Shown here piece by piece: positions 1 through 14,099 of a stretch of DNA of 32,000 bases (the first letter of the stretch is position 1; every line of letters starts with the position of its first letter). The notes under the pieces are model-generated. The model was not told where the DNA came from, ran no database searches, and saw only the letters and a program-made list of their open reading frames with translations. Source of the stretch: Xanthomonas campestris pv. campestris str. ATCC 33913. Lineage in GTDB: Bacteria; Pseudomonadota; Gammaproteobacteria; Xanthomonadales; Xanthomonadaceae. The translations under genes and the position numbers were made by a program. Location: the NCBI RefSeq assembly GCF_000007145.1, contig NC_003902.1, forward strand, positions 3,716,497 through 3,748,496. The letters run 5' to 3'.

Positions 1-837
1 GCACCGGCGCGTCGTACGCTGGTGCGCGAATGGATCGGGCGTGGTGCCAGCGAGCGTCGTGCGTTGGCAGTGATCGGCATGAGCGCCAGTGCACTGCGGT
101 ATTGCCCGCGCGAAGATCGCAATGGCGAACTGCGCGAACGCATCTGTGCGTTGGCACATCGCCATCGCCGCTATGGCGTGGGAATGATCTATCTCAAATT
201 GCGGCAAGAAGGGCGCATCGTGAACTACAAGCGTGTGGAACGGTTGTATCGCGAGCAGCAGCTGCAAGTGCGCCGCCGCAAGCGCAAGAAGGTCCCAATA
301 GGCGAGCGTCAACCGCTGCTGCGGCCATCGCAGGCCAACCAGGTGTGGTCGATGGACTTTGTGTTCGACCGCACCGCGGAAGGCCGGGTGATCAAGTGTC
401 TGGTGATCGTGGACGATGCAACCCACGAAGCGGTCGCCATCGAAGTGGAGCGCGCGATCTCCGGGCACGGGGTGACGCGCGTGCTGGACCGACTGGCGCA
501 CAGTCGCGGTTTGCCGAAGGTGATCCGCACTGACAACGGCAAGGAGTTTTGCGGTAAGGCGATGGTCGCTTGGGCGCATGCCCGTAATGTGCAACTACGG
601 CTCATCCAGCCAGGCAAACCGAACCAGAACGCCTATGTTGAATCCTTCAACGGCCGACTGCGCGACGAATGCCTCAACGAGCACTGGTTCCCGACGTTAC
701 TGCACGCGCGCACCGAAATCGAACGCTGGCGACGCGAATACAACGAGGACCGACCCAAGAAAGCAATCGGCGGCATGACGCCGGCTGCGTATGCCCAACA
801 TCTGGCAAACACCGATATCATCAACCCCGGACTCTAA
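1..837 (+). CDS. IS3-family transposase OrfB (DDE / rve integrase core), 5' end off the window
   Basis: Frame 1 is open from base 1 (ORF track 22..837). Carries IS3/IS407-group signatures: WSMDFV..., [51 protein letters not shown]. Confidence 0.9.
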   Translation, partial: APARRTLVREWIGRGASERRALAVIGMSASALRYCPREDRNGELRERICALAHRHRRYGVGMIYLKLRQEGRIVNYKRVERLYREQQLQVRRRKRKKVPIGERQPLLRPSQANQVWSMDFVFDRTAEGRVIKCLVIVDDATHEAVAIEVERAISGHGVTRVLDRLAHSRGLPKVIRTDNGKEFCGKAMVAWAHARNVQLRLIQPGKPNQNAYVESFNGRLRDECLNEHWFPTLLHARTEIERWRREYNEDRPKKAIGGMTPAAYAQHLANTDIINPGL

Positions 838-871
838 ACCAGGCCGCTACTCAGGGCGGGGGGGCGTCGCA
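1..871 (+). mobile_element. IS3-family insertion sequence (copy 1), right-hand part; right end somewhere in 853-871
   Basis: Transposase stop codon at 835-837, followed by a short terminal segment (...ctactcagggcggggggcgtcgCA). This resembles the G-rich ...GGGGGCAGGTCA terminus of the neighbouring IS remnant. The exact last base is ambiguous. Confidence 0.7.
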
Positions 872-1200
872 CGGACAACGGCCCGGAGTTCACCAGCCGC
901 GCCTTCATCACTTGGGCACAGCAGCGTGGCATCGAACACATCCTGATCGAACCCGGCAAACCCATGCAGAACGGCTACATCGAGAGCTTCAACGGCAAGT
1001 TCCGCGACGAATGTCTCAACGAACACTGGTTCACGTCGCTGATCCAGGCTCGCGAGGTCATCGCCGATTGGCGGCGTGACTTCAACGAGGTACGTCCGCA
1101 CAGCAGCTGTGGTCGCATCCCGCCAGCGCAGTTTGCCTCCAACCACCGAGCACAAACCGGCAACAACGCAGTACCCTTCAACCCCGGGCTTTATCAGTAA
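865..1200 (+). pseudogene. 5'-truncated IS3-family transposase (C-terminal ~110 aa only)
   Basis: Frame 1 reads (R)[54 protein letters not shown]...[16 protein letters not shown]. That is only the second half of a DDE core. The upstream part is replaced by IS copy 1. Confidence 0.85.
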
Positions 1201-1229
1201 TCACTGGTATGGCCGGTGGGGGCAGGTCA
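872..1229 (+). mobile_element. Remnant (right end) of a second IS3/IS407-group element, interrupted by IS copy 1
   Basis: The reverse complement of 1211-1229 is TGACCTGCCCCCACCGGCC, a TG...-type terminal inverted repeat typical of this IS group. High-GC IS DNA ends at 1229 and low-GC DNA starts at 1230. Confidence 0.7.
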
Positions 1230-1393
1230 CCATCAATATTTGAGCGTTTGGGCAAGCCGACTGTTTTCAACAGAATCAGCCAAAGTAGTCATTCAAAGCT
1301 ATCAACGAATTTATAGCCAATGCACGTTTTAAACCCTTTCGAAAACCTGGATGTATTCTTTTAGTAGCGGGGCATTGAAATAGCCGTGATGGA

Positions 1394-1430
1394 GGTGTAA
1401 GGTGTAGCCTTACACATTACACATTACACA
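1394..1430. promoter_or_regulatory. Convergent heptamer repeat array (GGTGTAA GGTGTAG cc TTACACA TTACACA TTACACA), candidate operator
   Basis: Three perfect tandem TTACACA copies at 1410-1430 face two inverted copies at 1394-1407. The array includes the palindrome GTGTAAGG-N5-CCTTACAC. It ends 16 bp upstream of the ATG at 1446 of the HTH-protein reading frame. Confidence 0.5.
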
Positions 1431-1480
1431 GGGTGGGCCCATAGAATGGAAAAGGAAATTAATACCTTGCACCCAGGATA

Positions 1481-4400
1481 TTGGGTCCGAGAAAACATCC
1501 TCAACCCCGAAATCTCACTGTGACCGAAGCGGCAAAGCTTATCGGCATAAGCCGTCCCGGGGTCTCAAATTTTCTCAACGCAAAGGTGTCAGCGACGCCT
1601 GATATGGCGGCGCGGCTGGAGCGAGTGTTTGGTGTACCAGCGAAAGATATTCTCAACCTCCAAAGCCTTTTTGAATCACAAGTTGCCAAGACCGAAGTTG
1701 CCTCTGTAAGTGTGCGTGCCTACGTAACGCCGTTTCTTGGCATTTCAGGCAATGAAATCACTGATTGGTTTACAAAGACAATCTTGGCCCGCACCCGGTT
1801 ATCGGTTCTCCTTCGTACGCTCATCAATTCGACGGGAGAGAATCTGGAGAGAGTTGACTTCCCCGGAAACGACGATGCGGAGCGACCTGGTTGGGATGGC
1901 TTCATTGAAGGTACCTTAGGCACGCCATGGATTCCTGCAGGTGTATCGGGCTGGGAGTTTGGAGTCAATGCTGACATCAAAGCTAAAGCTGACGGCGATT
2001 TTGCGAAAAGTGTGAAAGCGACTAGTAAGGCTGATCGTCAAAATATCACGTTTGTGTTCGTTACTCCTCGACGATGGCCTGGAAAGACTACGTGGCTTAG
2101 CACCATGCAAGCAAAGGGGCTTTGGAAGGACGTTCGCGCTTACGACGTTAGTGACTTGGAGCAATGGATGGAGACATCAATTGCAGCGCAGACATGGTTT
2201 GCTAATCAAACTGAGCGGCCATCGAGGGGCGTTCGAACTCTAGAAAAATGCTGGACTGATTGGGCGAATGTTGCAGAACCACCCCTTCATCCGTCGCTCT
2301 TCAGCACCGCGAACGAAGTCTGGCGCAGCCGTATAAAATTGTTCTTGTCGAAGTGTGATTCAGAGCCGCTCATTATAACGGCCGACTCAGTAGAAGAAGC
2401 CGTTGCGTTCTTGAGCCAGGTATTCAACGAGCCGGAGCTTGGCCATCATAAAGACCGCGTGCTTGTATTCGACGAGTGCGGTGTGCTACCAAAACTCGCC
2501 CAGAGTACAACCAATTTCATTGCCGTTGCTCATACGAGAGATGTCGAGCGGGAGTTTGGGTCCTATAGCAGGTCGTTGCGTACAATCGTGGTCTATCCGC
2601 GCAACGCCTCTAATGCTAATCCAGACATCATCTTAGAACCACTCGGTTATGAGGTTTTCGGCAAAGCACTTGAGGCGATGGATAAGGGGCGCGACGAAAT
2701 AACTAGGCTTGCCAATGCCTCAGGGCGCTCTCTCACTGTACTGCGGCGTATACTTTCGACAATCCCAGCAATCAAAACTCCCGTGTGGGCGGCCAATCAT
2801 CAAGCTGCTTCCAGCCTTGTCCCGCTCGCACTTTTAGGAACTTGGGATACGCGTAACAATGCGGACCAGGCAACTCTTTCGCTGCTTGCGGGTGGCCTTT
2901 CCTTTGATGCGCTAGAAAGACGAGTGCAGGAACTGCTACAGTTTAACGATTCACCCGTGTGGTCCCTGGGCAACTATCGCGGAGTGATTTCCAAGATTGA
3001 CTCTTTATTTGCGATTGCTGGGGCTGTCACCCTAGGTGACCTCAACCACTTTTTCGACATCGCAAAGAGCGTTTTGGGCGAGGACGACCCCGCTCTTGAT
3101 CTTCCAGAGAAAGAGCGTTGGGCGGCGACCATTCATGGTAAGAAGCGCGAGTTCTCCTCAGCTCTCCGCGAAGGCATTTCTGAAACATTAGTTTTGCTCG
3201 CAGTTCATGGGAAGCATCTTTTTGGGAAACGTCTTGGTTTTGATGGCGAACTCGCTGCTGGCCGCCTGGTAGGGGAACTTCTAGAGCCGCTTGAAACACG
3301 GAAGCTGGAAGCGAACGATCGCGATCTTCCTCTATATGCGGAAGCTGCCCCAAAGGAGTTCTTGAGCATTATTGAGCGTGACCTCAGATCAGAGAGTCCT
3401 TGCACACTGGGATTACTGCGCCCTGTCGCCGCAGGCGTCTTTGCCTCACCTAAACGAACAGGTCTTCTCTGGGCGCTTGAAGGGCTGGCTTGGAATCCCT
3501 CAACTTTTCCTCGCGTTGTCAAAATTCTGGGGCGACTCTCCGAAGTCAAGATTGACGACAACTGGGCTAATAAGCCCGTTAACTCACTGGAGTCGATCTT
3601 CAGAGCATGGATGCCGCAGACGGCAGCTGATCATGACTCGCGGTTGAAGGCCATGCGGATGCTAATGGAGAAGCATCCACCAATAGGCTGGGAGATCTGC
3701 CTCCAGCAGTTCGGCGACTTTGGGCGCGGCATCGGCCATTACACCCAAAAGCCTAAATGGAGGCCAGATGGATACGGCTTTGGCGAGCCCCTCTCCACGT
3801 GGGGACCTATCAACAACTTTGTTCGCGAAATGGTAGAGATGGCGCTGACGATGCCGTTCTACACAGTCAATATGATTTGCGATCTTATCGCGCGGCTCCA
3901 TGCGCTGTCTGTCAAAGATCAAGAAAAAGTCTGGAAGATCATCGACGAATGGCGGAAGGCTGGAGCAAGTGACGCCGACATCTCCCGTGTGCGTGAAAAA
4001 ATCCGTGTGACCGTACTGTCACGACGCGGCCGGAAAGCTGCTAACGAGTGCGAACAAGCCACCCTTTCGAAAATCGCAAGGGCAGTTTACGCGTCGATGG
4101 AGCCGACCGACGCCGTTAATAAGCACGAATGGTTGTTCCGGCAGGGCTGGGTCGAAGAGTCTGCAGATGAACTCTCGGGTGAAGAGCTTGATTTTCAGGC
4201 TCGCGAACGCCGGATTGAAAAACTCCGATTCGAAGCCTTGACCGAGATCGCCGCCAACAATGGTTTAAATGGAATTTTTAATCTTGCCATGAAGGGCAAC
4301 TCTCACCGGCAAATCGGCTGGTATCTGGCGCGTGGAATCTTGAACACTCAGCAACTCGAAGAGTTGATACTGCAGTGCCTTAGCAAAGGCAACGAGAATA

Positions 4401-5545
4401 TCATTCATAACAGCATCGCAAGTGGTGTTTTGGGGGCGCTTGATCAAGAGCAGCACAACGCGCTCTTTATGAGCTTGCGCAACCAAATGTCTGAGCAGGA
4501 TGCTCTTCGCATGCTTCTTCTCTCACCCTATTGTAGAGCGACGTGGGCACTCGCAGGGCAGCTTTCAGCTGAGGCCAATCGTAGCTATTGGCGCGATGTC
4601 TCCCCAGAGTTCATATTTGATGCGCCAGACCAGAATAACGAGAGTATCGGACATCTGCTTAGCGTGGGAAGACCGCGTGCCGCCTTCTCCTCGGTGCACT
4701 TCAAGCTTGATGAGGTGCGTCCCGAACTTCTGGTTCGGATGCTTTCCGAAATACCAAAAGACAGTAATGATAAGGAAGGTGAATACCAGTTTCAAAGCTA
4801 CGAAATCCAGCAAGCTTTCAAGCTCTTAAACCGGAATCCTGATGTGCTTTTCGAGGAGAAGGCAGGGTTGGAGTTTATGTTTATTGATGTCTTAGCTCGT
4901 TCGCACCGTGGTGGTGATGGGCACCAAATTCCGAACCTCGAACGCTACGTCGAGGATCATCCCGAAATGTTCGTGCAGGCAATAGTTTGGACGTACAAGC
5001 GCAAGACACCCGGGGATGATCCTGCAGAGTTCAGTACGGGAGAAGCTAGGGAGCGGTTGGCTATACAGGGCCATCGCTTGTTAGATGCTCTAGAGCGCAT
5101 TCCCGGACAGGATGAGGTCACAGAAGAGCTGGCCCGTCAGAAGCTGACCGAGTGGATAGCTATCGTTCGAAGGCGTTGTTCCGAACTCGACCGCGCAGAG
5201 ATAGCCGACGTTTGCCTTGGCAAGTTTCTGGCATGCGCTCCTGTGGGGAAGGATGGAGTGTGGCCTAATGAGGTTGTTCGCGATGTTATGGAGGATCTGG
5301 AATCCGAAGAAATATCCCGTGGCTCTCATACTGGACTCTACAACTCCCGTGGTGCGCATTGGCGAGGCGAAGGAGGAAGTCAGGAGAGGGAGCTCGCAGC
5401 TAAGTATCGCAGATGGGCAGAGGCCCTGAACTTTTCCCACCCGTTCGTTTCTTCGTCTCTTCTTACATCCATGGTTGAGACCTACGAGTATGAGGCGGAG
5501 CGGCAGGATGCGGAGGCAGGTATTCGGCGACGCCTTCGGCACTGA
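1481..5545 (+). CDS. Giant (1354 aa) protein: N-terminal HigA/XRE-type HTH fused to ~1270 aa of unassigned, largely helical sequence
   Basis: A single uninterrupted ORF. The N-terminus TVTEAAKLIGISRPGVSNFLNAKVSATPDMAARLERVFGVPAKDILNLQ parallels the HigA antitoxin HTH (compare ...LLTGKAALTPEMAIKLS...WLNLQ). No canonical Walker A or other catalytic signature was recognised. The probable true start is the ATG at 1446 in another frame (see findings). Confidence 0.8.
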   Translation: MGPRKHPQPRNLTVTEAAKLIGISRPGVSNFLNAKVSATPDMAARLERVFGVPAKDILNLQSLFESQVAKTEVASVSVRAYVTPFLGISGNEITDWFTKTILARTRLSVLLRTLINSTGENLERVDFPGNDDAERPGWDGFIEGTLGTPWIPAGVSGWEFGVNADIKAKADGDFAKSVKATSKADRQNITFVFVTPRRWPGKTTWLSTMQAKGLWKDVRAYDVSDLEQWMETSIAAQTWFANQTERPSRGVRTLEKCWTDWANVAEPPLHPSLFSTANEVWRSRIKLFLSKCDSEPLIITADSVEEAVAFLSQVFNEPELGHHKDRVLVFDECGVLPKLAQSTTNFIAVAHTRDVEREFGSYSRSLRTIVVYPRNASNANPDIILEPLGYEVFGKALEAMDKGRDEITRLANASGRSLTVLRRILSTIPAIKTPVWAANHQAASSLVPLALLGTWDTRNNADQATLSLLAGGLSFDALERRVQELLQFNDSPVWSLGNYRGVISKIDSLFAIAGAVTLGDLNHFFDIAKSVLGEDDPALDLPEKERWAATIHGKKREFSSALREGISETLVLLAVHGKHLFGKRLGFDGELAAGRLVGELLEPLETRKLEANDRDLPLYAEAAPKEFLSIIERDLRSESPCTLGLLRPVAAGVFASPKRTGLLWALEGLAWNPSTFPRVVKILGRLSEVKIDDNWANKPVNSLESIFRAWMPQTAADHDSRLKAMRMLMEKHPPIGWEICLQQFGDFGRGIGHYTQKPKWRPDGYGFGEPLSTWGPINNFVREMVEMALTMPFYTVNMICDLIARLHALSVKDQEKVWKIIDEWRKAGASDADISRVREKIRVTVLSRRGRKAANECEQATLSKIARAVYASMEPTDAVNKHEWLFRQGWVEESADELSGEELDFQARERRIEKLRFEALTEIAANNGLNGIFNLAMKGNSHRQIGWYLARGILNTQQLEELILQCLSKGNENIIHNSIASGVLGALDQEQHNALFMSLRNQMSEQDALRMLLLSPYCRATWALAGQLSAEANRSYWRDVSPEFIFDAPDQNNESIGHLLSVGRPRAAFSSVHFKLDEVRPELLVRMLSEIPKDSNDKEGEYQFQSYEIQQAFKLLNRNPDVLFEEKAGLEFMFIDVLARSHRGGDGHQIPNLERYVEDHPEMFVQAIVWTYKRKTPGDDPAEFSTGEARERLAIQGHRLLDALERIPGQDEVTEELARQKLTEWIAIVRRRCSELDRAEIADVCLGKFLACAPVGKDGVWPNEVVRDVMEDLESEEISRGSHTGLYNSRGAHWRGEGGSQERELAAKYRRWAEALNFSHPFVSSSLLTSMVETYEYEAERQDAEAGIRRRLRH

Positions 5546-6297
5546 GTGGGCTTGAGCTGTGCGGGGTCAGTCTTCTGATGTCGGAACTAACCCCGCTATC
5601 CAGTACACTTTGAGCCATTAGCTGCTACTTATGAATGGCTAATGGTCCAAAGTAAGCGCTCGCGGTGATTGTGTAATCGGCTCTTCAACGTTACTGAGAT
5701 CTCTATAGCTTTAAACTAGCAGGTGAGCCTCAGATATGAATAGTTTGATGTTTGTTTGCAGCGCGCCACGTTAGTTGGTCAAGTTGCAATTTTTTTGATA
5801 GCGGCGTTCACTATTTTTTACACAGTCATTCCTTTATATCAGCAGAGTAACTTAGGCGGTACGATGAGCACTAATGGTTGTTTTGATAATCCATAATTTA
5901 GCTGACTCATCGCATGTGTCACAGTGACTTTTTTAACTCGGGATCTTCGAAAGAATAGCCACCTGATTTGCTGGATTCAATAGTACGGATGTGCTATGGG
6001 CAGCATGAGCCAAGCCCTCTATGTTAATCAAGCAGTTCAGCTTCCGAAGTGAGTGGGTTTAGAAGACATTGAGAAATGCGCAGTTTGCATGTCGACTTGC
6101 TTGATTGCTCAGTGCCAGCATTTCAATGGTATTTATACTAGATATCCTATCTTGAGTTGATGCGCATTTCGTCGACATATCATGAATTGCGTCAGGAAAT
6201 TCATCGCTAAGCTACGCGATTATAGGAGCCAGCAACCGAACCAGCCTTGCCCTCTGCTGTTGGCACAGATGATTGTGACTGTTAAGGAGTCTTGCGG

Positions 6298-7182
6298 ATG
6301 GAGCTGCGACATCTGCGCTGCTTTGTGGTTTTGGCCGAGGAACTGCACTTCACAAGAGCAGCTGAACGCCTCCATATCGAACAATCTCCTTTATCCAGGA
6401 CTATCAAGGAACTGGAAGACGACTTGGGCGCTTTACTGTTCAACCGTGATCGAAGAGGAACGCGGCTGACCGATGCCGGCAAAGCATTTCTTCTGGACGT
6501 ACGCCGTTTATTTACCACTTTGGATCAAGCCCGAGAAAATGTGAAGGCGGTTTCCGCGGGCTTCCGGGTAAGTATGCGGATTGCAGTATCAGACGGAGCG
6601 ATCGATTCCAGATTATCTGATCTTCTTGCACGTTGTCGCGAGGAGGAGCCTGATGTTGAAATTCGCCTCACAGAAGTCACGCTCTCTGAGCTCCTCCATG
6701 GACTAAGGTCGGGAGACTTCACCATTGGGTTCACACACACAGAAGAGGTTGGCGATGGCATTGTTGCTGAACCCATTTGGCATGCACGAATGGTTGCAGT
6801 GATACCAGCCCGTCATCCGCTACTCGCTTTCAAAGAAGTGCCTATCGAAGAACTTCTCCGCGCCCCATTGATCATGTGGAACCACCAAGCCTATGAGGGC
6901 TACGATAAGGCCTTTACCAAGCTGTTGCGAGGCTTGGATGAGAAACCAAACGTCATCGAGCGCGCAGCTTCGCTCGACGTTATGCTAGCTCTCGTTGCGG
7001 CTGGTTACGGGATTGGCCTCGCATCTGGCGCGAAGCTGGAACCGTGCAAGCATTCTGATATCGTCATCCGTCCATTGGCAAATCAATCAGCGGTGATTAC
7101 GACGTACATGCTGACAGCTGCCAATGCTGCGCCTTCAATCTCTGTGGATCGCTTCACAACACGTTTGAAAGATAGAAATTAG
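6298..7182 (+). CDS. LysR-type transcriptional regulator (full length)
   Basis: MELRHLRCFVVLAEELHFTRAAERLHIEQSPLSRTIKELEDDLGALLFNR is a classic LTTR winged HTH, followed by a substrate-binding domain (...LVAAGYGIGLAS...). AAGGAG lies 8 nt upstream of the ATG at 6298. Confidence 0.9.
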   Translation: MELRHLRCFVVLAEELHFTRAAERLHIEQSPLSRTIKELEDDLGALLFNRDRRGTRLTDAGKAFLLDVRRLFTTLDQARENVKAVSAGFRVSMRIAVSDGAIDSRLSDLLARCREEEPDVEIRLTEVTLSELLHGLRSGDFTIGFTHTEEVGDGIVAEPIWHARMVAVIPARHPLLAFKEVPIEELLRAPLIMWNHQAYEGYDKAFTKLLRGLDEKPNVIERAASLDVMLALVAAGYGIGLASGAKLEPCKHSDIVIRPLANQSAVITTYMLTAANAAPSISVDRFTTRLKDRN

Positions 7183-7209
7183 ATAATCGCTGCAATCAAA
7201 TCGAACACT

Positions 7210-7518
7210 TCACCCTTCTGAGTCAGAGTAAAGAATGCTTTCAGTAGCAGTCATCAGGTTGGCTGCACTGTCGTTTAATGCGATGGATACCCGCAAAATC
7301 AACGCTAGTGTAGGCATGTGTTGCCCCCGCTCGATCTTTCCCATGTGAGAGCGCTCAATGCCGGCGAGGGTTGCCAGCTCTTCTTGAGATATGTCGCGCG
7401 CAGTCCGTGCGGCACGTACAGCCTTCCCGAACGCAATCGCTGGCTCAGCTTCATAGGTGGTGGCGCCCATTGGGCGTCCTGGTTTCATTGTGCGCTTCTG
7501 CATCGGCAAAAGCGTCAC
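7210..7518 (-). CDS. XRE (Cro/C1)-family HTH transcriptional regulator
   Basis: ISQEELATLAGIERSHMGKIERGQHMPTLALILRVSIAL is a typical XRE HTH. The start is uncertain: GTG at 7518, or ATG at 7503 or 7488. Confidence 0.8.
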   Translation of the reverse strand: MTLLPMQKRTMKPGRPMGATTYEAEPAIAFGKAVRAARTARDISQEELATLAGIERSHMGKIERGQHMPTLALILRVSIALNDSAANLMTATESILYSDSEG

Positions 7519-7521
7519 GCA

Positions 7522-7553
7522 TTAAGCTTAACTAAACCACGTTAAACTTAACT
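7522..7553. promoter_or_regulatory. Direct repeats TTAAGCTTAACT / TTAAACTTAACT, 20 bp apart, in the divergent promoter region
   Basis: 12-bp repeats at 7522-7533 and 7542-7553 with one mismatch. They sit between the XRE gene start and the start of the LysR-effector-domain ORF. Confidence 0.35.
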
Positions 7554-7605
7554 CTTTGCATGATGTTTGGTGACTTTTCCCTTACATAGTCCGGAGGGGC
7601 AGACC

Positions 7606-8256
7606 ATGAACCAGGATTGTTGCTCGCGATTGATCAGAGTTGCCGCCGCTCCAGCAGTGCTGTCCCCAGAGTTGGCTGATCTCCTTGCGCTTCAGCGAAC
7701 AGAAGAGCCTGAAACACCTGTGCTATTGCAAGAGGTCACCCAGGACGTGCTCACGACTAGCATCCTCGGAGGAACCTACGATCTAGGCATCGGTTGGCCG
7801 GTAGCCACCGATGCCCTAGCCGTCCTGCCACTGTGGCGCGACCAATTAGCCGTCGCTTTGCCCGCTCGTTCCCCACTGCTGGCAAAGCGTGCTATTTCAT
7901 TACAGGTAACACTCAGTTACCCATTGATTTGTTGGCATCCGAATCCTTGTGTTGAAGGGCTTGATACGGAGGCAGAAACGGATGATCGAAGCGCTCATCT
8001 ATGCCGGGTTGCAGTCACATCCTTCGATCTGCTTACGGTACTCGTTGCGGCTGGCTATGGCATCGGTATTGCGCCGAAGAGCTACATAGTCAGTGCCCGT
8101 AATCGAGGTATCGTCATGCGCCAGATCCTCGGCACTCCTCGTTGGGTTTACACCTGTCTTTTTCGATCGGCTAATGCTCTCTCACCTGCAGTTGAAAGGT
8201 TTGTCGAGCGAGCGTCACGGGTAGCGATATCCACGGAAAACAAGCGTTTCAGGTGA
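7606..8256 (+). CDS. LysR substrate-binding-domain-only protein (no N-terminal HTH); possibly a truncated LTTR
   Basis: The sequence aligns by eye with the effector domain of the LysR at 6298 (...LPARSPLL..., ...LVAAGYGIGIAP...). It begins directly at the linker/RD-I region. GGAGGGG lies ~10 nt upstream of the ATG at 7606. The ORF track start at 7567 is a TTG. Confidence 0.65.
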   Translation: MNQDCCSRLIRVAAAPAVLSPELADLLALQRTEEPETPVLLQEVTQDVLTTSILGGTYDLGIGWPVATDALAVLPLWRDQLAVALPARSPLLAKRAISLQVTLSYPLICWHPNPCVEGLDTEAETDDRSAHLCRVAVTSFDLLTVLVAAGYGIGIAPKSYIVSARNRGIVMRQILGTPRWVYTCLFRSANALSPAVERFVERASRVAISTENKRFR

Positions 8257-8326
8257 AAACTGGAGCGGGATTTTGATAGACCGTTTATGGCGTTGTCGTG
8301 CATCGCTGCTATCGGCAAAAAAGAGG

Positions 8327-9328
8327 CTACAGAGAGGGCACAGTCGGCCGCTGCCGAGCTTCTTGCTCCGGAATCTGGTGTGGAGGCTGCTGCTGCGCGC
8401 GCTCCGTTACCGACTCACTGCTTTGCAGTTTTCGCACCTTTTCGAAAGATTGCTCAACTGGCGTCTGTATCGCCTCCTGAGTCGGCATGTATGCGCGCAG
8501 GGTTGCAGGGTTGTCTGAAGCGCCCTGCAGAATGAAGATTTTTTCGCCGGGCGCTGCGGCATTGGTCTGCTTGCTCAGTGCGATTTCGTCAACGCTACTG
8601 AAGTTGTTTTGCTTGGCGAGCGCATACACACTGGCGGTAATGCGGGCGCTGTCTGCAGCTTGCACGTGACCGGAATTTTTTAGTCCTTCGATCTTCTCGC
8701 GTATCTGCTGCATCAAAGCGTGATCCGGATGACCCTGGCGAATTGGATCGTTGGCCGGGGTACGTTCTAGCTCCCGGTTCTGGGCTGGTTGCTCGCGGTA
8801 GCGCAGTTCCTCTATACGTTCCTCTGACAGCATACGGTTGCCAAGGCCCGGCTCGACCCTGCCAGGGAAACCCTCTACCGGTAAACTCATCAATTCGCCA
8901 AAGGTTCGGAAGGCGGAATTGCTATTAACGGTGTCACCAAACACCTTGAAGCCATACTTGGGATAGTTCAGATTCAGTGCGTTGAGTTCTGGCATCGCTT
9001 TAACTGCAGTGTTCCAACGCGCCAGGATCTCATCCTTATCGCCGATGACGACGGTGCGTGATTGCTGGTTATCCTCAATGAAGGTACTTCGACTCACGTC
9101 GGTGCCAACTGAGGCTGCATAGGCACCATCGAGCGCAAGGTTCCAAGCACGAAGGGAGTGCCTAGCCTCGTCAGTACCTATTGTGAGTGCTTCGCCGGTT
9201 TGTCGATCAGTGGCCAGGCCGTGTAACTCAGCTAGAGCTTTACCCTGCTCATCGCGCAAAACCCAGAAATCGTGTCCAGCTACACCAAGAACATTGAGTG
9301 ATCTTGCTTCAATCGTATACTTCGGCAT
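8327..9328 (-). CDS. Candidate X-T4SS effector (X-Tfe-like): unassigned N-terminal ~190-aa domain plus C-terminal XVIPCD-like secretion domain
   Basis: The C-terminal ~140 aa read GHPDHALMQQIREKIEGL...SVDEIALSKQT...GEKIFILQGASDNPATLRAYMPTQEAIQTPVEQSFEKV, then a Q/P-rich tail (QQQPPHQIPEQEARQRP). This matches the motif order I know from XVIPCD domains. Recognition is by eye only. Confidence 0.65.
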   Translation of the reverse strand: MPKYTIEARSLNVLGVAGHDFWVLRDEQGKALAELHGLATDRQTGEALTIGTDEARHSLRAWNLALDGAYAASVGTDVSRSTFIEDNQQSRTVVIGDKDEILARWNTAVKAMPELNALNLNYPKYGFKVFGDTVNSNSAFRTFGELMSLPVEGFPGRVEPGLGNRMLSEERIEELRYREQPAQNRELERTPANDPIRQGHPDHALMQQIREKIEGLKNSGHVQAADSARITASVYALAKQNNFSSVDEIALSKQTNAAAPGEKIFILQGASDNPATLRAYMPTQEAIQTPVEQSFEKVRKLQSSESVTERAQQQPPHQIPEQEARQRPTVPSL

Positions 9329-9360
9329 GCTCTGTTCAATCCATGAATGCTTTGCTATTG

Positions 9361-9780
9361 CTACTTGCTAGAGACGCACGAGTCTAGCAAGCTCTTGAGG
9401 TTGGTCATCGCCTGTGCCACCCCTAGGTCAATAAAGTAGGGACCGCCACCTCTCAGCGTTATATCCGCCTGGTTAGCTCCTTGCGCACGTTCGATGCGCA
9501 TGCGGAAACCAGTGCGGTTCTTATCGTCAAAGGTCCCAGATTCAAGCACACCATTGATGCTGTCCTTACGCGTGATTTCTCTCCAAGAACTATCGGTTGC
9601 GGAGAGTTTGCTGATGCTGAGTTCGGCGCAGTCAAACAGACGTTGGTTCGGAAGATCACGAGGTATTGCCAAGTGATCGGAAGCTGTTGGGATCTTCCCG
9701 GTGGCTAGGAACGCGTTGCATCCACCCAGCGAGGAGATCGCCAAGCTAATGATAGTGAAAACTTTCAGCCGAGGTTTCAT
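9361..9780 (-). CDS. Small lipoprotein (139 aa), candidate cognate immunity protein (X-Tfi-like)
   Basis: Signal peptide MKPRLKVFTIISLAISSLGG|C, with a positive n-region, a hydrophobic core and a lipobox. SD GGAGA lies 6 nt upstream. The stop codon is 32 nt before the effector-like ORF on the same strand. Confidence 0.6.
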   Translation of the reverse strand: MKPRLKVFTIISLAISSLGGCNAFLATGKIPTASDHLAIPRDLPNQRLFDCAELSISKLSATDSSWREITRKDSINGVLESGTFDDKNRTGFRMRIERAQGANQADITLRGGGPYFIDLGVAQAMTNLKSLLDSCVSSK

Positions 9781-9964
9781 GTGGCTCTCCTGATAAGCGC
9801 TTAACGCATCACACTTCGACGATGCTGCGAGAGTGACGGAACACCAGTGTAAGTGGAACAGTAAGGCTTGTTGGTTTGACTACCCATTAGAGGAGCACTT
9901 GGGGCCTCGCACTTAGACATGACTTTTGAAGCCCCATTCGCCTTGCTCGGCGTTCATCCCCGCC

Positions 9965-11845
9965 TCAAAATTCAGACATGCATTCGGCAATCCTGTTTAT
10001 GGGGACTCGCTTCTCAACGACTGGCGTCGTTGCTTCAGATACGGCCCGGCAAACCGCCTCAACCATCGCTTGCTGATTGTCCGAAGTGAGCGCCTCAATA
10101 GGCGACTTGCCATCAAGTTCCTCGCGAGGTCGCGTCAAGGCGTAGTAGATATCCCATGTATCAACGCCACGGTGCAGACGCTTGAGTACCGCCTGCACCA
10201 AGCGGCGCTTGAACATGTTGAGTTGCCACACCGGAACCCGCTGCCCCTTGTTGCCCAACTGAATTGAAAGTAGGTTGCGGGCCTGGATCTCGTAAGTAAT
10301 CCACCGCCGCGATTTGCCCGCGAGCTTGGCATAGTCCGCGACGACCAGGTTGTCGGGCCCTTCAAAAATGTCCAGTACCTCCAATCGCTCTCGCTGGACC
10401 TCAGAGATCTTCGGTAGAGCGTATTCAGGCATTTGCACTGCAGAGAGCCGCTGAGTCCCGGTGCCGACAGCTGGCATCGTTTGCTCATTGGGTGCTACCA
10501 GCATGATGGGAGCGTGTTGGCCCAACGCCGGCAGCGGCGTGACTTTCTGACCGGCAATTGTGGGAACGCCCTGAAGGTGGATGGTGAGGTGCGTGCTGGC
10601 AATCTGAACCTGATTTTGCTCGAACAGATCCAGCCGATCAGCCCAGTCCTGCATCATTAGCCGACGCTGTTCAACGTACTCGGCATGGTTGTAGGTGGCG
10701 CTGATGCGATTGGGGTCAGCATGTGAGAGTTGCGCGTCGACCCAGACCTTGGGGTAACCCAGCTCATTGAGGGCGGTTGAAATCGTCGCCCTGATGCCGT
10801 GACCGGTGAGACGACCGTCATAGCCCAGCCGCTTGATCGCACGGTTGACCGTGTTTTCGCTCATGCGGGCAGTGATTCGCTTCACGCCTGGGAAAAGGTA
10901 GGTCTGCGCTGGTTTGAACAGGTCGAGCATGTGCCGCACGATCTCGATGGCTTGCACGGGCAGCGGCACGATGTAGGGCGGGATGTCAGTTACGCGTTTT
11001 CGCTTCTTCTTGGTCAGCATCTTGCGCTGCTTGAGCGACATCACCGGGATGATCCATAAACCTTGTTCCAGATCGAATTGGTCCGGCGTGGCCAAACGTA
11101 GTTCGCCTGTGCGTACACCCGTCAGCAGCAACAGGCGAATGGCCAATTGGGTCATCTGCATGCCGCGGTACTTGCGAAGTGTCTGCAGAAACAGGGGGAG
11201 CTCGGGCATACGCAGGAATGGGTTGTGCTCAACGGGCGGCAACGGAACAGCGACCACGTGTAGATCGATGGCGGGGTGCTCGACCATGCCCGGAATGACC
11301 ACCATGGCGTAGTCGGCGAGTTGCTTGAGCCAGGTGCGCACCTTTTCGGCGACGGACAGTGACTCGCGTTTCTCGATCCGGCCGATCACCTCCAGTAGCA
11401 CCGGACGGGTGATCTCGTAGATGGTGTAGCGTTTGAGGTAAGGGAATACATCTTTTTTGAACACGCGGCGGATCTGTTCCAGCGAACTTTGACGACCTTC
11501 TTCCAGGGTCAGTTGCCGGTGTTCCATCCACTTTTCGTAGACCGCCATGAAGGTGTTTTCGCCAGCCAACCGGATGGCTTGGCGTTTTTGCTTTCGGTCG
11601 GTGCGCGGGTTGATGCCCTTGGCGACGAGGGCACGGGCCTGGTCACGAAATTCGCGCGCGTCGCGCAGAGAGAGTTCGGGATAGCTGCCAAGCGAAATTC
11701 GGGCACGTTGTCCAACCCAGGTGTAGCGGAAGTGCCAGGCTTTGCCGCCAACAGGGGAGACGTAGAGGAACAAACCGTCGAAGTCTGCGAGGGTGTAGGG
11801 CTTGTCGGAAGCCTTTGCTTGCCGGACGACCATATCTGTGAGCAT
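9965..11845 (-). CDS. int: P4-type tyrosine integrase with ~215-aa C-terminal extension
   Basis: N-terminus MLTDMVVRQAKASDKPYTLADFDGLFLYVSPVGGKAWHFRY is an arm-type DNA-binding domain. Catalytic motifs are LTGVRTGEL, GHGIRAT and ATYNHAEY. GGAG lies upstream of the ATG at 11845 (the ORF track TTG at 11854 is unlikely). The core ends near residue 410 of 626. Confidence 0.9.
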   Translation of the reverse strand: MLTDMVVRQAKASDKPYTLADFDGLFLYVSPVGGKAWHFRYTWVGQRARISLGSYPELSLRDAREFRDQARALVAKGINPRTDRKQKRQAIRLAGENTFMAVYEKWMEHRQLTLEEGRQSSLEQIRRVFKKDVFPYLKRYTIYEITRPVLLEVIGRIEKRESLSVAEKVRTWLKQLADYAMVVIPGMVEHPAIDLHVVAVPLPPVEHNPFLRMPELPLFLQTLRKYRGMQMTQLAIRLLLLTGVRTGELRLATPDQFDLEQGLWIIPVMSLKQRKMLTKKKRKRVTDIPPYIVPLPVQAIEIVRHMLDLFKPAQTYLFPGVKRITARMSENTVNRAIKRLGYDGRLTGHGIRATISTALNELGYPKVWVDAQLSHADPNRISATYNHAEYVEQRRLMMQDWADRLDLFEQNQVQIASTHLTIHLQGVPTIAGQKVTPLPALGQHAPIMLVAPNEQTMPAVGTGTQRLSAVQMPEYALPKISEVQRERLEVLDIFEGPDNLVVADYAKLAGKSRRWITYEIQARNLLSIQLGNKGQRVPVWQLNMFKRRLVQAVLKRLHRGVDTWDIYYALTRPREELDGKSPIEALTSDNQQAMVEAVCRAVSEATTPVVEKRVPINRIAECMSEF

Positions 11846-12085
11846 GCGTACCAACTCCTGATGCTGCGAGTTGGATGCGATGTTTGTTCTCAGGTGGCCT
11901 GCTCTTCCAGCAACAATGCGGAACGGGTGTTCACCGCATTTTGTACCGCAAAACGTACCGATTTGTACCGGTAGTCAGTGGATTTCGCTGGACGTCACTG
12001 GACTGAAGAAGAGGGGTAATTCAGAACCAGATCAGTCACTTACAACGTTCCTTGGCGCTGGGTGGACGTCAGTGGAAAGTCGAAG

Positions 12086-12159
12086 TGGAGCGGGCGATGG
12101 GAATCGAACCCACGTCAGTAGCTTGGGAAGCTACAGCTCTACCATTGAGCTACGCCCGC
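12086..12159 (-). tRNA. tRNA-Gly (anticodon CCC), CCA encoded
   Basis: The reverse complement folds as a cloverleaf: GCGGGCG-TA-GCTC-AATGGTA-GAGC-T-GTAGC-TTCCCAA-GCTAC-TGAC-GTGGG-TTCGATT-CCCAT-CGCCCGC-TCCA. Length 74 nt. Confidence 0.95.
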
Positions 12160-12243: not shown

Positions 12244-12281
12244 CGTAGACAGCCTTAGCGCTGCGGGTGCAGCGGGTACGG

Positions 12282-14099
12282 TTAGAAGTTGCCGCTGAAG
12301 TTCACGAACACGGTGGCGTCGCGGGCGCTGCGCTGGGCGGTGGTGGTGCTCAGGCCGATGTTGCTCTGCAGGCCCCAGATGCCGGTGCGGGCGCCCAGCA
12401 CAACGGTCGCGTAGTTGCGGTCGAAGTTCTGGCCCGGGACGGTGTACATGCCCACTTCCGGCATCGACTGCAGCCAGGCGCTGGCTTCGGTGCCGTCCTT
12501 GAACTCGTGGTCGTAGGTGGCCTGCAGGTACGGCTTGACCGGCGCGCCATCCAGGCGCACCTGGAAGCCGATGCGGCCCACCAGCGAGTCGATGTCCTGG
12601 TCGGCATAGCCCAGCGCGGTGGAGCTTGCGTTGCTTTCGGTGTAGCCGTCGAGCTTGAGCTTCTGCCAGGTCAGGCCGACCACCGGGCCGTACTTGACGT
12701 TGCCTTCGCCCAGCGAATAGCCGGCATTGACCGCGGCAGTGAGGTTACTGCCGTCCGGCGAGCCACTGTGCACGCGGGTGGCTGGCCCCAGCTGGACTTC
12801 GCGGTCCACGTCGTAGCTCAGCCAGCTGTAGCTGACCTGGGCGTTGACCCAGACCGGGCCGGTGTACCAGCCGACGAAGCCGCCCAGCGTGGTGTCATCC
12901 TGCTTGAAGCTGCCGTTGCGGTTGCCGAAGTCGGCATCCATGCGGCCGAAGCCGGCAAAGCCGCCGAACACCAGGTCACCGGCGGTCCAATCCACGCCGA
13001 ACAGGCCGGCCGGCGCCATGCCGTCGTACAGGTCCGCATCGTCATAACGCTGAATGTCGCCACGCACGCTCCCCCACCAACGCAGGCCATCGGCCTCGGG
13101 CTTCCCATCAAGGTGCCAAGCCACCTGGTCGGCACGTGCGCGGCCGCCGGCCTGGGCGGAGCGCGTCAGCACCTGCTGCAGGCGCGGCGCTTCCAACAGC
13201 GAGATGGCGTACTGGCCCAGGATCTGGTGGGTGGCCGTGGTGGGGTGGATGCCGTCGGCGAACACATAGGTGTTGGGCGCGTTCGCGGCGACCAGGCTGG
13301 TCGGGTTGCAGGCCGGCAGCGCGAGCGCCGGGTTGCAGGCGGTACCGGTGACGTTGCTGAAACCGTAGATGCCCGGGTCGGCAACCACTTCCTGCAGGAT
13401 GTGGAAGGTATCGACCGGGATCACCCGCAGGCCGGCCGACTGCAGGCCGTTGAACAGTGCGGTGTTGTAGGCGGTGGCAGCGGCCGTGCCCTGCGCCATG
13501 GCGGCGGCACCGCCGGCGCGGAAGCGCGGGGTGATGCCCACATCCGGAATGGTCGGCACCATCACATAACGTGCGCCAGCGGCCTGCAGCGCGCCAACCG
13601 CGCCCACCTGCGCGGTCACGGCGCTGCCGATGATGGCCTGCGCCTGGGCAGGCGCGGTGGCTGCAGCGAGCAGGTCATTGGCGCCGCCCCACACGGTGTA
13701 CAGCGCATTCGGGTTGGCCTGACCACCGTTGGCCACCAAATAGGTATTGACCTGGCTGGTCACCGACGGTGCTGCGCCGAGCGCGCTGACCGAACTGGCC
13801 TGGATGCGCGCGCCGCCGGCAGCGTAGTTGTCGCCGGTCTGGCCATTGCCGTTGGGCGCCGCATTGGTGCCGAAGTGGTCGCCCACGTATTCGGCCCACA
13901 CCCAGCCCGGGTTGGTGGTGAACTTGCCGGTGACCGCGCGCGAGGCGGCCGGCAGCAGCGGGTTGTAGTAACCGCTGTCGGTGAGGCTGTCACCGAAGAA
14001 CACGGTTTGATCGAAGGCCGAGTCGGCCATGGCCGGGCTGGCCGCCAGCGCGATGGCCACGGCCATCAGGGAACGGATCGGGCGAAGGGTTGAAGCCAT
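12282..14099 (-). CDS. estA: GDSL/SGNH esterase-lipase autotransporter (EstA-like)
   Basis: Signal peptide MASTLRPIRSLMAVAIALAASPAMA, then the GDSL block FFGDSLTDSG. The C-terminal ~280 aa is an aromatic-rich beta-barrel ending ...VFVNFSGNF. Confidence 0.9.
   Translation of the reverse strand: MASTLRPIRSLMAVAIALAASPAMADSAFDQTVFFGDSLTDSGYYNPLLPAASRAVTGKFTTNPGWVWAEYVGDHFGTNAAPNGNGQTGDNYAAGGARIQASSVSALGAAPSVTSQVNTYLVANGGQANPNALYTVWGGANDLLAAATAPAQAQAIIGSAVTAQVGAVGALQAAGARYVMVPTIPDVGITPRFRAGGAAAMAQGTAAATAYNTALFNGLQSAGLRVIPVDTFHILQEVVADPGIYGFSNVTGTACNPALALPACNPTSLVAANAPNTYVFADGIHPTTATHQILGQYAISLLEAPRLQQVLTRSAQAGGRARADQVAWHLDGKPEADGLRWWGSVRGDIQRYDDADLYDGMAPAGLFGVDWTAGDLVFGGFAGFGRMDADFGNRNGSFKQDDTTLGGFVGWYTGPVWVNAQVSYSWLSYDVDREVQLGPATRVHSGSPDGSNLTAAVNAGYSLGEGNVKYGPVVGLTWQKLKLDGYTESNASSTALGYADQDIDSLVGRIGFQVRLDGAPVKPYLQATYDHEFKDGTEASAWLQSMPEVGMYTVPGQNFDRNYATVVLGARTGIWGLQSNIGLSTTTAQRSARDATVFVNFSGNF

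Follow-up and report, generated by a model that had tools for sequence, protein, structure and literature searches.

The window analysed here, a 32,000-nucleotide stretch of genomic DNA from Xanthomonas campestris pv. campestris (Xcc) ATCC 33913, carries two adjacent minus-strand genes: one for a 139-residue lipoprotein and, downstream of it, one for a 333-residue protein that ends in an XVIPCD, the domain by which the VirD4 protein of the bacteria-killing type IV secretion system of the Xanthomonadales (X-T4SS) recognises its substrates (Table 1). We propose that the two genes probably encode an effector (X-Tfe) and its cognate immunity lipoprotein (X-Tfi), carried as cargo by an integrase island. 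The initial annotation, made from the sequence alone, had described a bipartite 333-residue open reading frame (ORF) whose first ~190 residues lack cysteine, preceded 32 nucleotides upstream on the same strand by a lipoprotein ORF with a good Shine-Dalgarno sequence, the whole lying in a low-GC, integrase-bearing island. This description is borne out in every respect: the XVIPCD occupies the C-terminal half of the ORF, beside a separate N-terminal domain (hereafter N-domain); the protein has no Cys anywhere; the spacer is exactly 32 nucleotides, with AGGAG 6 nucleotides before the lipoprotein ATG; and a GC step, a 629-residue tyrosine integrase and a tRNA-Gly(CCC) gene are all present, GC content being 0.51-0.55 over positions ~1000-10000 versus 0.64-0.70 from 12500 on. 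No terminator-like site was found between the lipoprotein and effector genes, which by their sequence are a probable bicistron.

Table 1. Features of the effector-lipoprotein locus (positions in the window).
Feature	Position	Strand	Basis
Effector gene, candidate X-T4SS effector (X-Tfe)	8327..9328	-	333 residues + stop; ORF; identical to AAM42416.1/AAY48093.1
N-terminal domain, residues 1-178, putative toxin/enzyme	8795..9328	-	AlphaFold2 domain model; family of 503 clusters
His19 codon, candidate catalytic	9272..9274	-	99% conserved in 189 members; strand 17-25
His36 codon, candidate catalytic, motif AELHGLATDR	9221..9223	-	95% conserved; strand 31-41
Asn135-Ser136-Asn137 codons; Ser136 candidate nucleophile at N-terminus of helix 136-146	8918..8926	-	conservation
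Flexible linker, residues 179-197	8738..8794	-	full-length model pLDDT ~60 at residues 181-200
XVIPCD, residues 198-299, VirD4-recognised secretion domain	8432..8737	-	Pfam PF20410; Foldseek matches
Gln/Pro-rich C-terminal tail, residues 300-333	8330..8431	-	7 Gln in final 34 residues; pLDDT 53-61 at 311-333
32-nucleotide spacer, lipoprotein stop to effector ATG	9329..9360	-	sequence; no terminator-like site
Lipoprotein gene, 139 residues, candidate cognate immunity protein (X-Tfi)	9361..9780	-	ORF; synteny; allele-specific pairing
Lipoprotein signal peptide and lipobox (L18-G19-G20-C21)	9718..9780	-	sequence; Cys invariant in 20-sequence alignment A5
Shine-Dalgarno AGGAG, 6 nucleotides before lipoprotein ATG	9787..9791	-	sequence
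Island tyrosine integrase, 629 residues	9965..11854	-	Pfam Arm-DNA-bind_3, Phage_int_M, Phage_integrase
tRNA-Gly(CCC), probable island attachment site	12086..12159	-	ARAGORN; GC step here

Both ORFs are real genes and not chance ORFs, because identical proteins occur in hundreds of Xanthomonas contigs and the N-domain has at least 214 homologues. The two accessions identical to the effector come from Xcc ATCC 33913 (AAM42416.1) and 8004 (AAY48093.1), the ThiG, GH6 and integrase genes of the window likewise giving exact matches. Effector-identical proteins are recorded on 230 contigs (Xanthomonas), and the 90%-identity cluster of the effector takes in X. fragariae, X. arboricola, X. vasicola, X. 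phaseoli, X. euvesicatoria and X. hortorum. In favour of the assigned start codon, homologues open with the same MPxYxIEARS. In NCBI and UniRef the effector is labelled 'XVIPCD domain-containing protein' (older name 'DUF6696'), so that its XVIPCD part is already in databases; a literature search by gene accessions found no paper naming the effector gene.

The C-terminal part of the effector is a genuine XVIPCD. Pfam PF20410 matches residues 198-299 with an E value of 7.7e-25 (87.9 bits against a cutoff of 24.9), and the sequence matches in the PDB (9p3h, 7r6s and 7mu9) are confined to the C-terminus, residues ~190-315 (9p3h_A, E 2.9e-15). The full-length AlphaFold2 model has a predicted local distance difference test score (pLDDT) of 90.4, with both domains at high confidence. 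In this model the XVIPCD is predicted as alpha-alpha-beta-beta-beta (helices 203-217 and 224-240; strands 248-251, 263-268 and 277-282; pLDDT >90) and is followed by a lower-confidence Gln/Pro-rich tail. The same order of elements has been described for the XVIPCD fold (PMC8740702, PMC10432156), and a Gln-rich tail is a described feature of the domain (PMC6536674, PMC10432156). Foldseek retrieved the corresponding solved structures: 7r6s, which is S. maltophilia TfcB (PMC11253643), at E 1.8e-6, and 7mu9, the nuclear magnetic resonance structure of the XAC2609 XVIPCD, at E 3.5e-4 with a template modelling (TM) score of 0.65. Published motifs of the domain are GLxRIDHV-like and FAVQGxxDPAHxRAHV-like (PMC10432156), and the published blocks are recognisable in the effector as NFSSVDEIALS and IFILQGASDNPATLRAYM. 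The XVIPCD binds VirD4 and is needed for secretion by the X-T4SS (PMC6536674, PMC8740702). The NCBIfam equivalog for Smlt3024 (NF050128) scored 98.6 bits over residues 196-315 only, against its cutoff of 800 bits; we therefore rejected membership of the Smlt3024 family, the C-terminus alone being aligned and no full-length match exceeding 800 bits.

The N-domain is also modelled with confidence, the domain-only AlphaFold2 model reaching a pLDDT of 94.5 and a predicted TM score of 0.91, with five beta-strands (4-13, 17-25, 31-41, 57-65 and 89-96) and helices that include 98-117 and 136-146. Residues 1-195, searched as a single sequence, had no match in Pfam, NCBIfam or PHROGs. Known toxin families gave no Pfam match over the N-domain in 46 members at E<=10, nor in 145 full-length members. 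Sequence and profile searches of the PDB gave no N-domain match (best N-domain profile E 0.12), and neither the full-length nor the domain-only model had an N-domain match at E<=0.001 when Foldseek was run against PDB and BFVD. CLN5 (6r99) was the top PDB match in both Foldseek searches, at E 0.34-0.47, probability 0.41 and TMq 0.32. Thus, of what the initial annotation had said about the two halves of the protein, the XVIPCD reading is upheld by profile, predicted fold and solved structures alike, and the lack of any motif of a known toxin family agrees with the empty searches. Its 'new toxic fold' stands in part: the modelled domain has no significant structural neighbour in either structure database, and its fold would be new relative to solved (PDB) and viral (BFVD) structures only.

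The N-domain defines a broad family. A word-indexed search with residues 1-195 returned at least 214 homologues, none with a Pfam domain over the N-domain part, and a profile of 46 sequences (A2) retrieved 503 clusters at 50% identity, 243 of them with E<=1e-10. For architecture and conservation, the 189 members in which the domain is nearly complete were examined. The domain stands at the N-terminus in 184/189, and what follows it varies: nearly nothing in 51/189, 71-200 residues in 109/189 and a longer tail in 12/189. Among the 145 members with extra sequence, Pfam found only two recurrent partners, XVIPCD (40/145) and RTX calcium-binding repeats (8/145); a few have cadherin or Ig-like domains, and a Pfam scan of family members found no peptidoglycan-binding or second catalytic domain. 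The RTX-type members include giants of 579-2808 residues (P0218, P0227, P0259, P0272 and P0316), in which the N-domain comes first and is followed by RTX repeats, HCBP_related or DUF4214 termini, P0227 having a subtilase S8 and a P-domain in addition. XVIPCD and RTX are export signals read at the C-terminus, by type IV and type I secretion systems (T4SS and T1SS) respectively, and the N-domain therefore behaves as a portable N-terminal cargo.

The remaining tails are of several kinds. That they might be divergent XVIPCDs was considered and is not claimed (hhalign probability at most 18%, for group G3, and ~0-2% for the others). At two loci (L042 1680-3833 and L050 4859-7008), adjacent genes with unrelated N-termini share near-identical C-termini of ~110 residues (NRQFEQALKGTNGDRDAAA...QGKNGLIVSQGQGD...Q-rich). 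Neither Pfam nor hhalign recognises this shared tail as an XVIPCD; possibly, Lysobacter-like genomes use it as a divergent or alternative tag for secretion. At two others, effector clusters of Xanthomonas sp. NCPPB 1128 (L008 7402-9066, minus strand) and Lysobacter hankyongensis (L027 7066-12519, minus strand), XVIPCD-bearing ORFs of 493-560 residues adjoin the N-domain gene. The shared tail of the first two loci and the XVIPCD neighbours of the second two hint that some non-XVIPCD tails are analogous tags. Pseudomonas homologues of ~220-246 residues (L010 5944-6675 and L011 5935-6675, from Pseudomonas ovata and Pseudomonas sp. 286; also P0013, P0018 and P0028) have a hydrophobic, transmembrane-like C-terminal segment in place of the XVIPCD and no lipoprotein upstream, and by sequence they look tail-anchored. 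In the X. translucens/cerealis group (L012, L013; P0016, P0033, P0040, P0043 and P0049) the effector has ~212 residues and ends where the XVIPCD would start, and the X. translucens lipoprotein is shortened in L013 and missing in L012; these copies look to be decaying.

A candidate active site emerges from conservation across all four architecture classes of the 189 members. Near-invariant residues are His19 (99%), His36 (95%), Trp105 (98%), Tyr122 (99%), Asn135 (99%), Ser136 (96%) and Asn137 (100%), and all invariant N-domain residues are intact in the window effector. In the AlphaFold2 model His19 and His36 lie on consecutive strands (17-25 and 31-41) and Ser136 opens helix 136-146. In three divergent members (P0310, P0336 and P0341) Ser136 is replaced by Cys, within the motif G-N-C-N-S and with both His kept. 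Such a Ser/Cys exchange is as expected of a catalytic nucleophile and therefore suggests a Ser/Cys-His hydrolase. A Ser(/Cys)-His hydrolase or acyltransferase is thus the chemistry that we favour for the N-domain from its sequence and model, at what we judge to be nearly an even chance.

A papain-like ancestry of the 'H-box/NC' type is a lead only, and a rather doubtful one. LRAT (PF04970) and NLPC_P60 (PF00877) gave no Pfam match at E<=10 in 46 members. Hhalign of the N-domain against PLAAT3 as a single sequence (identical to that of 4fa0/4dot) gave a probability of 0.05%, and against a profile of 86 PLAAT3 orthologues 0.1%, the latter profile holding close mammalian orthologues only and so having low diversity and low power. 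PLAAT structures were absent from the top 50 Foldseek matches of the N-domain in the PDB. We do not classify the N-domain with the permuted NlpC/P60 group: the window protein lacks the Cys of the NC motif, having no Cys at all, and position 136 is Ser in 96% of members.

The lipoprotein begins with MKPRLKVFTIISLAISSLGG followed directly by C, and Cys21 (the lipobox), Cys51 and Cys135 are invariant in an alignment of 20 sequences (A5), which is consistent with an exported, disulfide-bonded protein. A cytosolic form made from an alternative start, as proposed for some X-Tfis (PMC6536674), is unlikely here, since the next Met after Cys21 is Met94. The family had no relative in Pfam, PHROG or the PDB. 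The label DUF3568, which one UniRef member carries, was dropped, there being no Pfam match in 10 diverse lipoprotein homologues at E<=10.

The tie between the lipoprotein and the N-domain is apparent at other loci. A genome scan with the N-domain profile yielded 58 loci, in Xanthomonas, Stenotrophomonas, Pseudoxanthomonas, Lysobacter, Thermomonas, Silanimonas, several Pseudomonas, Burkholderiales and other Betaproteobacteria, Pararobbsia and a Legionella metagenome-assembled genome. An iterative search of all locus ORFs with the window lipoprotein placed a lipoprotein homologue directly upstream, on the same strand and 0-170 nucleotides from the N-domain gene, in 29/58 of them, with the lipobox Cys conserved at the aligned position. 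The lipoprotein follows the N-domain whatever the C-terminal tail, loci with non-XVIPCD tails included. Moreover, the two vary together: over 435 pairs, N-domain identity correlates with lipoprotein identity (r=0.79), the lipoprotein diverging faster (mean identity 39% versus 61% for the N-domain). These results agree with the claim of the initial annotation that the pair has the lipoprotein-plus-effector bicistron layout of X-Tfi/X-Tfe genes, in which the X-Tfi gene lies upstream of the X-Tfe gene and encodes a lipoprotein signal when the target is periplasmic (PMC6536674).

In our view the most telling sequence evidence for this tie is the allele structure. A-type effectors (the window, L004 and L005), with N-domains 95-100% identical to that of the window, are accompanied by a single A-type lipoprotein at least 92% identical to that of the window. 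B-type effectors, found in Pseudomonas viridiflava (L001), Xanthomonas sp. (L006) and X. hortorum (L007), have an N-domain ~80% identical to that of the window. Their adjacent lipoprotein is also B-type (95-99% identical within B, 71-79% to A), and an extra A-type copy, 90-94% identical to the window lipoprotein, lies further upstream, the lipoprotein genes standing in tandem before the effector (L001 8917-9973, L006 4915-5973, L007 80-1243). The distal A-type copy is an apparent orphan immunity gene, and the layout of the B loci matches the cognate-plus-orphan immunity pattern familiar from polymorphic toxin loci. In another N-domain subclade, the upstream slot is occupied by a second, Cys-rich lipoprotein family of 155-159 residues (motifs PVLRDDF...DVFT; L034 2874-4109, with two tandem copies, L045 3662-4129, L047 5406-5879 and L052 3803-4282). 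It is unrelated to the first, hhalign between the two families giving a probability of 0.5%.

A module of integrase, lipoprotein(s), effector, LysR fragment, Xre and LysR genes recurs beside tRNA-Gly(CCC) in X. arboricola, Xanthomonas sp. LMG 31884 and P. viridiflava, the tRNA gene adjoining the integrase in L001, L004, L005 and L006. The integrase cluster is itself common to many Xanthomonas species and P. viridiflava. The latter (GCA_053628875.1, contig range 1134850-1155845) has the complete island on a 6.3-Mb chromosome, the XVIPCD effector being intact. The distal cargo varies, with DUF4189 proteins and a helicase in P. viridiflava and a 1354-residue helix-turn-helix (HTH) protein in the window. 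By its sequence context, the pair is cargo of a tRNA-targeting tyrosine-integrase island at tRNA-Gly(CCC), and the earlier suggestion of a horizontally mobile module is supported by the occurrence of the same island in several Xanthomonas species and on the P. viridiflava chromosome. A tblastn search of PLSDB with the effector gave no match that would indicate plasmid carriage.

All together, sequence and analogy make it likely that the two genes form an effector-immunity bicistron of the X-T4SS, carried by the island. The 333-residue effector, which has no signal peptide, would be made in the cytoplasm; by analogy with known X-Tfes, its XVIPCD would be bound by the VirD4 coupling protein and the protein injected, upon contact, into rival Gram-negative cells. 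There the N-domain may damage an envelope component accessible from the periplasm, probably by hydrolysing an amide or ester bond of peptidoglycan or of a membrane lipid. The putative catalytic centre would consist of Ser136, at the helix N-terminus in the invariant Asn-Ser-Asn, and of His19/His36 on adjacent beta-strands. The 139-residue protein would be exported, lipidated at Cys21 and probably disulfide-bonded between Cys51 and Cys135. From its place in the periplasm of the producer it would bind and neutralise the N-domain, and so protect against leakage or attack by kin, as the localisation signals, synteny and allele-specific co-variation suggest. A wider proposal is more tentative, and we put it at somewhat below an even chance as a whole: that the N-domain founds an undescribed family of secreted envelope enzymes, with a fold without significant relatives in PDB or BFVD and a Ser(/Cys)136-His19-His36 centre, possibly as a distant Ser-using offshoot of the 'H-box/NC' enzymes; that it is exported by two routes, the X-T4SS via XVIPCD and the T1SS via RTX; that at least two unrelated lipoprotein families confer immunity to it; and that one allele pair travels on a genus-crossing island, from Xanthomonas to Pseudomonas. 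What is new here is the definition and breadth of the toxin-domain and immunity families, the candidate catalytic residues and the allele and orphan-immunity structure.

Several points weigh against the effector-immunity interpretation. As the initial annotation had pointed out, the pair lies away from virB/virD4 genes: in the domain scan, none of the window's large ORFs showed a VirB or VirD4 domain. Xcc ATCC 33913 and 8004 are counted among strains that possess an X-T4SS together with X-Tfe substrates (Sgro et al. 2019, PMC6536674), the assignment to the host thus resting on the literature and not on window data, and the vir locus of these strains is fragmented (PMC6536674). X-Tfe genes are usually scattered around the genome (PMC6536674), and an 'orphan' effector is therefore not unusual. 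Pseudomonas does not appear in the published list of genera that carry an X-T4SS (Sgro et al. 2019, PMC6536674), and the same island is found in P. viridiflava. An XVIPCD that binds VirD4 was reported to be insufficient for exclusive T4SS targeting in X. euvesicatoria (PMC10432156). As to the toxin, the catalytic proposal is drawn from conservation and secondary-structure position only, and Foldseek matched no known hydrolase fold to the N-domain, its best match, CLN5, being non-significant. Finally, the 51/189 domain-only members have no signal peptide and have unrelated housekeeping neighbours, a poor fit to an obligatorily secreted toxin. For these members a link to the type VI secretion system (T6SS) was considered and rejected, their upstream large ORFs being MetRS, GyrB-like, aldehyde dehydrogenase, GatB, sensor kinase, MMPL and the like.

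Three other explanations have to be weighed. The pair might mainly stabilise its own island, the effector acting in the periplasm independently of a T4SS and killing cells that lose the lipoprotein, even in hosts without an X-T4SS. Indeed, pair and integrase stay together at tRNA-Gly(CCC) in Xanthomonas species and in P. viridiflava, and in cells missing the X-Tfi of XAC2609 the envelope is damaged in an X-T4SS-independent, effector-dependent manner, X-Tfis protecting against such cis-intoxication (Oka et al. 2024, PMC10933484). However, the full XVIPCD and the Gln-rich tail are kept at ~84-100% identity across island copies, which argues for continued selection on secretion, and the extra A-type immunity gene of the B-type islands better suits defence against the toxin of a rival. 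We consider island addiction unlikely as the principal role of the pair; it and the effector-immunity reading are not mutually exclusive. Less probable still is a non-bacterial or extracellular target of the N-domain (fungal, plant or other eukaryotic cells, or exopolymers), the lipoprotein then being an accessory factor. The N-domain also occurs fused to RTX/T1SS-type C-termini, subtilase and cadherin-like domains, as is usual in proteins that cells release into the medium, and delivery into fungi was recently shown for a Lysobacter X-T4SS effector, LtdD (PMC13600162); but an allele-matched lipoprotein partner in 29 loci, and a second, unrelated lipoprotein family in the same slot, are the signature of self-protection against a periplasm-active toxin, and Pfam scans of members detected no eukaryote-targeting domain or motif.

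The pair might also be a decaying relic, an XVIPCD protein with an inactive N-domain that happens to lie beside an unrelated island lipoprotein. Fragments are common among X-Tfe genes (Sgro et al. 2019, PMC6536674), and X. translucens, X. cerealis and X. sacchari have truncated copies of 212-243 residues that stop where the XVIPCD begins, the L013 lipoprotein being shortened as well. We nevertheless regard this explanation as very improbable for the window: its copy is full length and has identical counterparts on all those 230 contigs, the invariant residues are intact, both domains are modelled at high confidence, and the lipoprotein is no random neighbour, as its synteny, co-variation and allele pairing indicate.

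The domain scan showed the other large ORFs of the window to be ordinary Xanthomonas backbone or island genes, namely a GDSL-lipase autotransporter, ThiG, a TrmB-like methyltransferase, a CitMHS transporter, LacI, GH6, a TonB-dependent receptor, GH2, LysR regulators and an insertion sequence (IS) transposase. At 6292-8256, a full LysR gene (6292-7182), an Xre-type HTH gene (7210-7518, minus strand) and an HTH-less LysR fragment (7567-8256) adjoin the effector pair, and this trio recurs in L001 and L004-L007. The direct repeat D1 is found because the two LysRs of the window are paralogues, 30% identical. A conserved link between LysR and the N-domain family was rejected as generic, LysR genes near other members being only ~30% identical to those of the window. 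The 1354-residue island protein (1481-5545, plus strand) has an N-terminal HTH_3 and no further Pfam domain. Almost its entire length matches PHROG 18693 (function unknown; E 2.7e-146); a regulator or a defence protein associated with phages or islands is one possibility. The left edge of the low-GC island (22-1200, plus strand) holds an IS3-type transposase ORF (HTH_21, rve, rve_3) and a second transposase fragment (964-1200), so that the left border is occupied by IS3-type transposase fragments. A search for attachment sites gave a sole candidate, a 19-nucleotide near-repeat (18/19) of 440-458 with 12080-12098 at the tRNA-Gly end; its left copy falls within the transposase ORF, and it is probably due to chance. 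The GDSL-lipase autotransporter gene (12282-14099, minus strand) is mirrored by a 608-residue antisense ORF (12267-14093, plus strand) without a Pfam match, which is a typical high-GC shadow ORF and not a gene.

The effectors of the X-T4SS are known weapons of Xanthomonadales, both plant-associated and clinical. In a 'considerable fraction' of X-Tfes the N-terminal region has no identifiable domain (Sgro et al. 2019, PMC6536674). The present locus turns one such protein into a concrete, testable case, with a compact 178-residue domain, a confident model and the near-invariant residues H19, H36, Y122, N135, S136 and N137. It also offers a cognate lipoprotein and natural A/B allele pairs for comparisons of specificity, and the N-domain family is broad, its 503 clusters bearing XVIPCD tags, RTX tags, other tails or none. 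If the N-domain is a new envelope-degrading enzyme, it adds a toxin and an immunity family where Pfam and NCBIfam have none, and toxin modules would be seen to serve both T4SS and T1SS export and to pass from one genus to another with a small tRNA-Gly island; if it is inactive, the effector is merely another annotated XVIPCD protein. The locus is thus a good experimental target, and would come as no surprise to specialists.

The pair can be compared with several known systems. Periplasm-acting T6SS pairs (Tae amidases with Tai, Tle lipases with Tli lipoproteins) follow a like logic, an injected envelope enzyme with an adjacent periplasmic, often lipoprotein, immunity protein, and show a like allelic diversification with extra orphan immunity genes. 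They differ in their delivery system, the family members examined having no VgrG, PAAR or Hcp genes nearby, and in that the N-domain resembles NlpC/P60 or alpha/beta-hydrolase effectors neither in sequence nor, to a significant degree, in fold. The LRAT/PLAAT 'H-box/NC-motif' proteins and CLN5, which are circularly permuted papain-like enzymes, share the order of elements, with two His on consecutive N-terminal strands and then an Asn-nucleophile pair at a helix start: N112-C113 in PLAAT3, and N-S, or N-C in three members, in the N-domain family. In contrast to them, the nucleophile position is Ser in 96% of that family, and the profile and fold matches are non-significant. RTX enzymes of the T1SS share their layout, a catalytic domain first, then RTX repeats and a signal at the C-terminus, with P0218, P0227, P0259, P0272 and P0316, in which the N-domain takes the position of the catalytic domain, whereas the window protein has no RTX repeats and its export tag is the XVIPCD.

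Finally, the X-Tfe/X-Tfi pairs themselves, such as XAC2609/XAC2610 of X. citri and Smlt3024/Smlt3025 of S. maltophilia, have in common with the window pair an XVIPCD core, a Gln-rich tail, an N-terminal cargo domain, an upstream gene for a lipoprotein, the candidate immunity protein in the window, a site away from the vir locus and a host species listed as carrying an X-T4SS. Unlike the known effectors, however, the window protein has an N-domain unrelated to the GH19/lysozyme domains of XAC2609 and TfcB, to Smlt3024 and to lipase, M23, AHH or HNH domains, and for its lipoprotein neither the known X-Tfis nor the PDB hold a detectable relative. The window pair also differs from these pairs in being the cargo of an integrase island, one that is found in Pseudomonas too.

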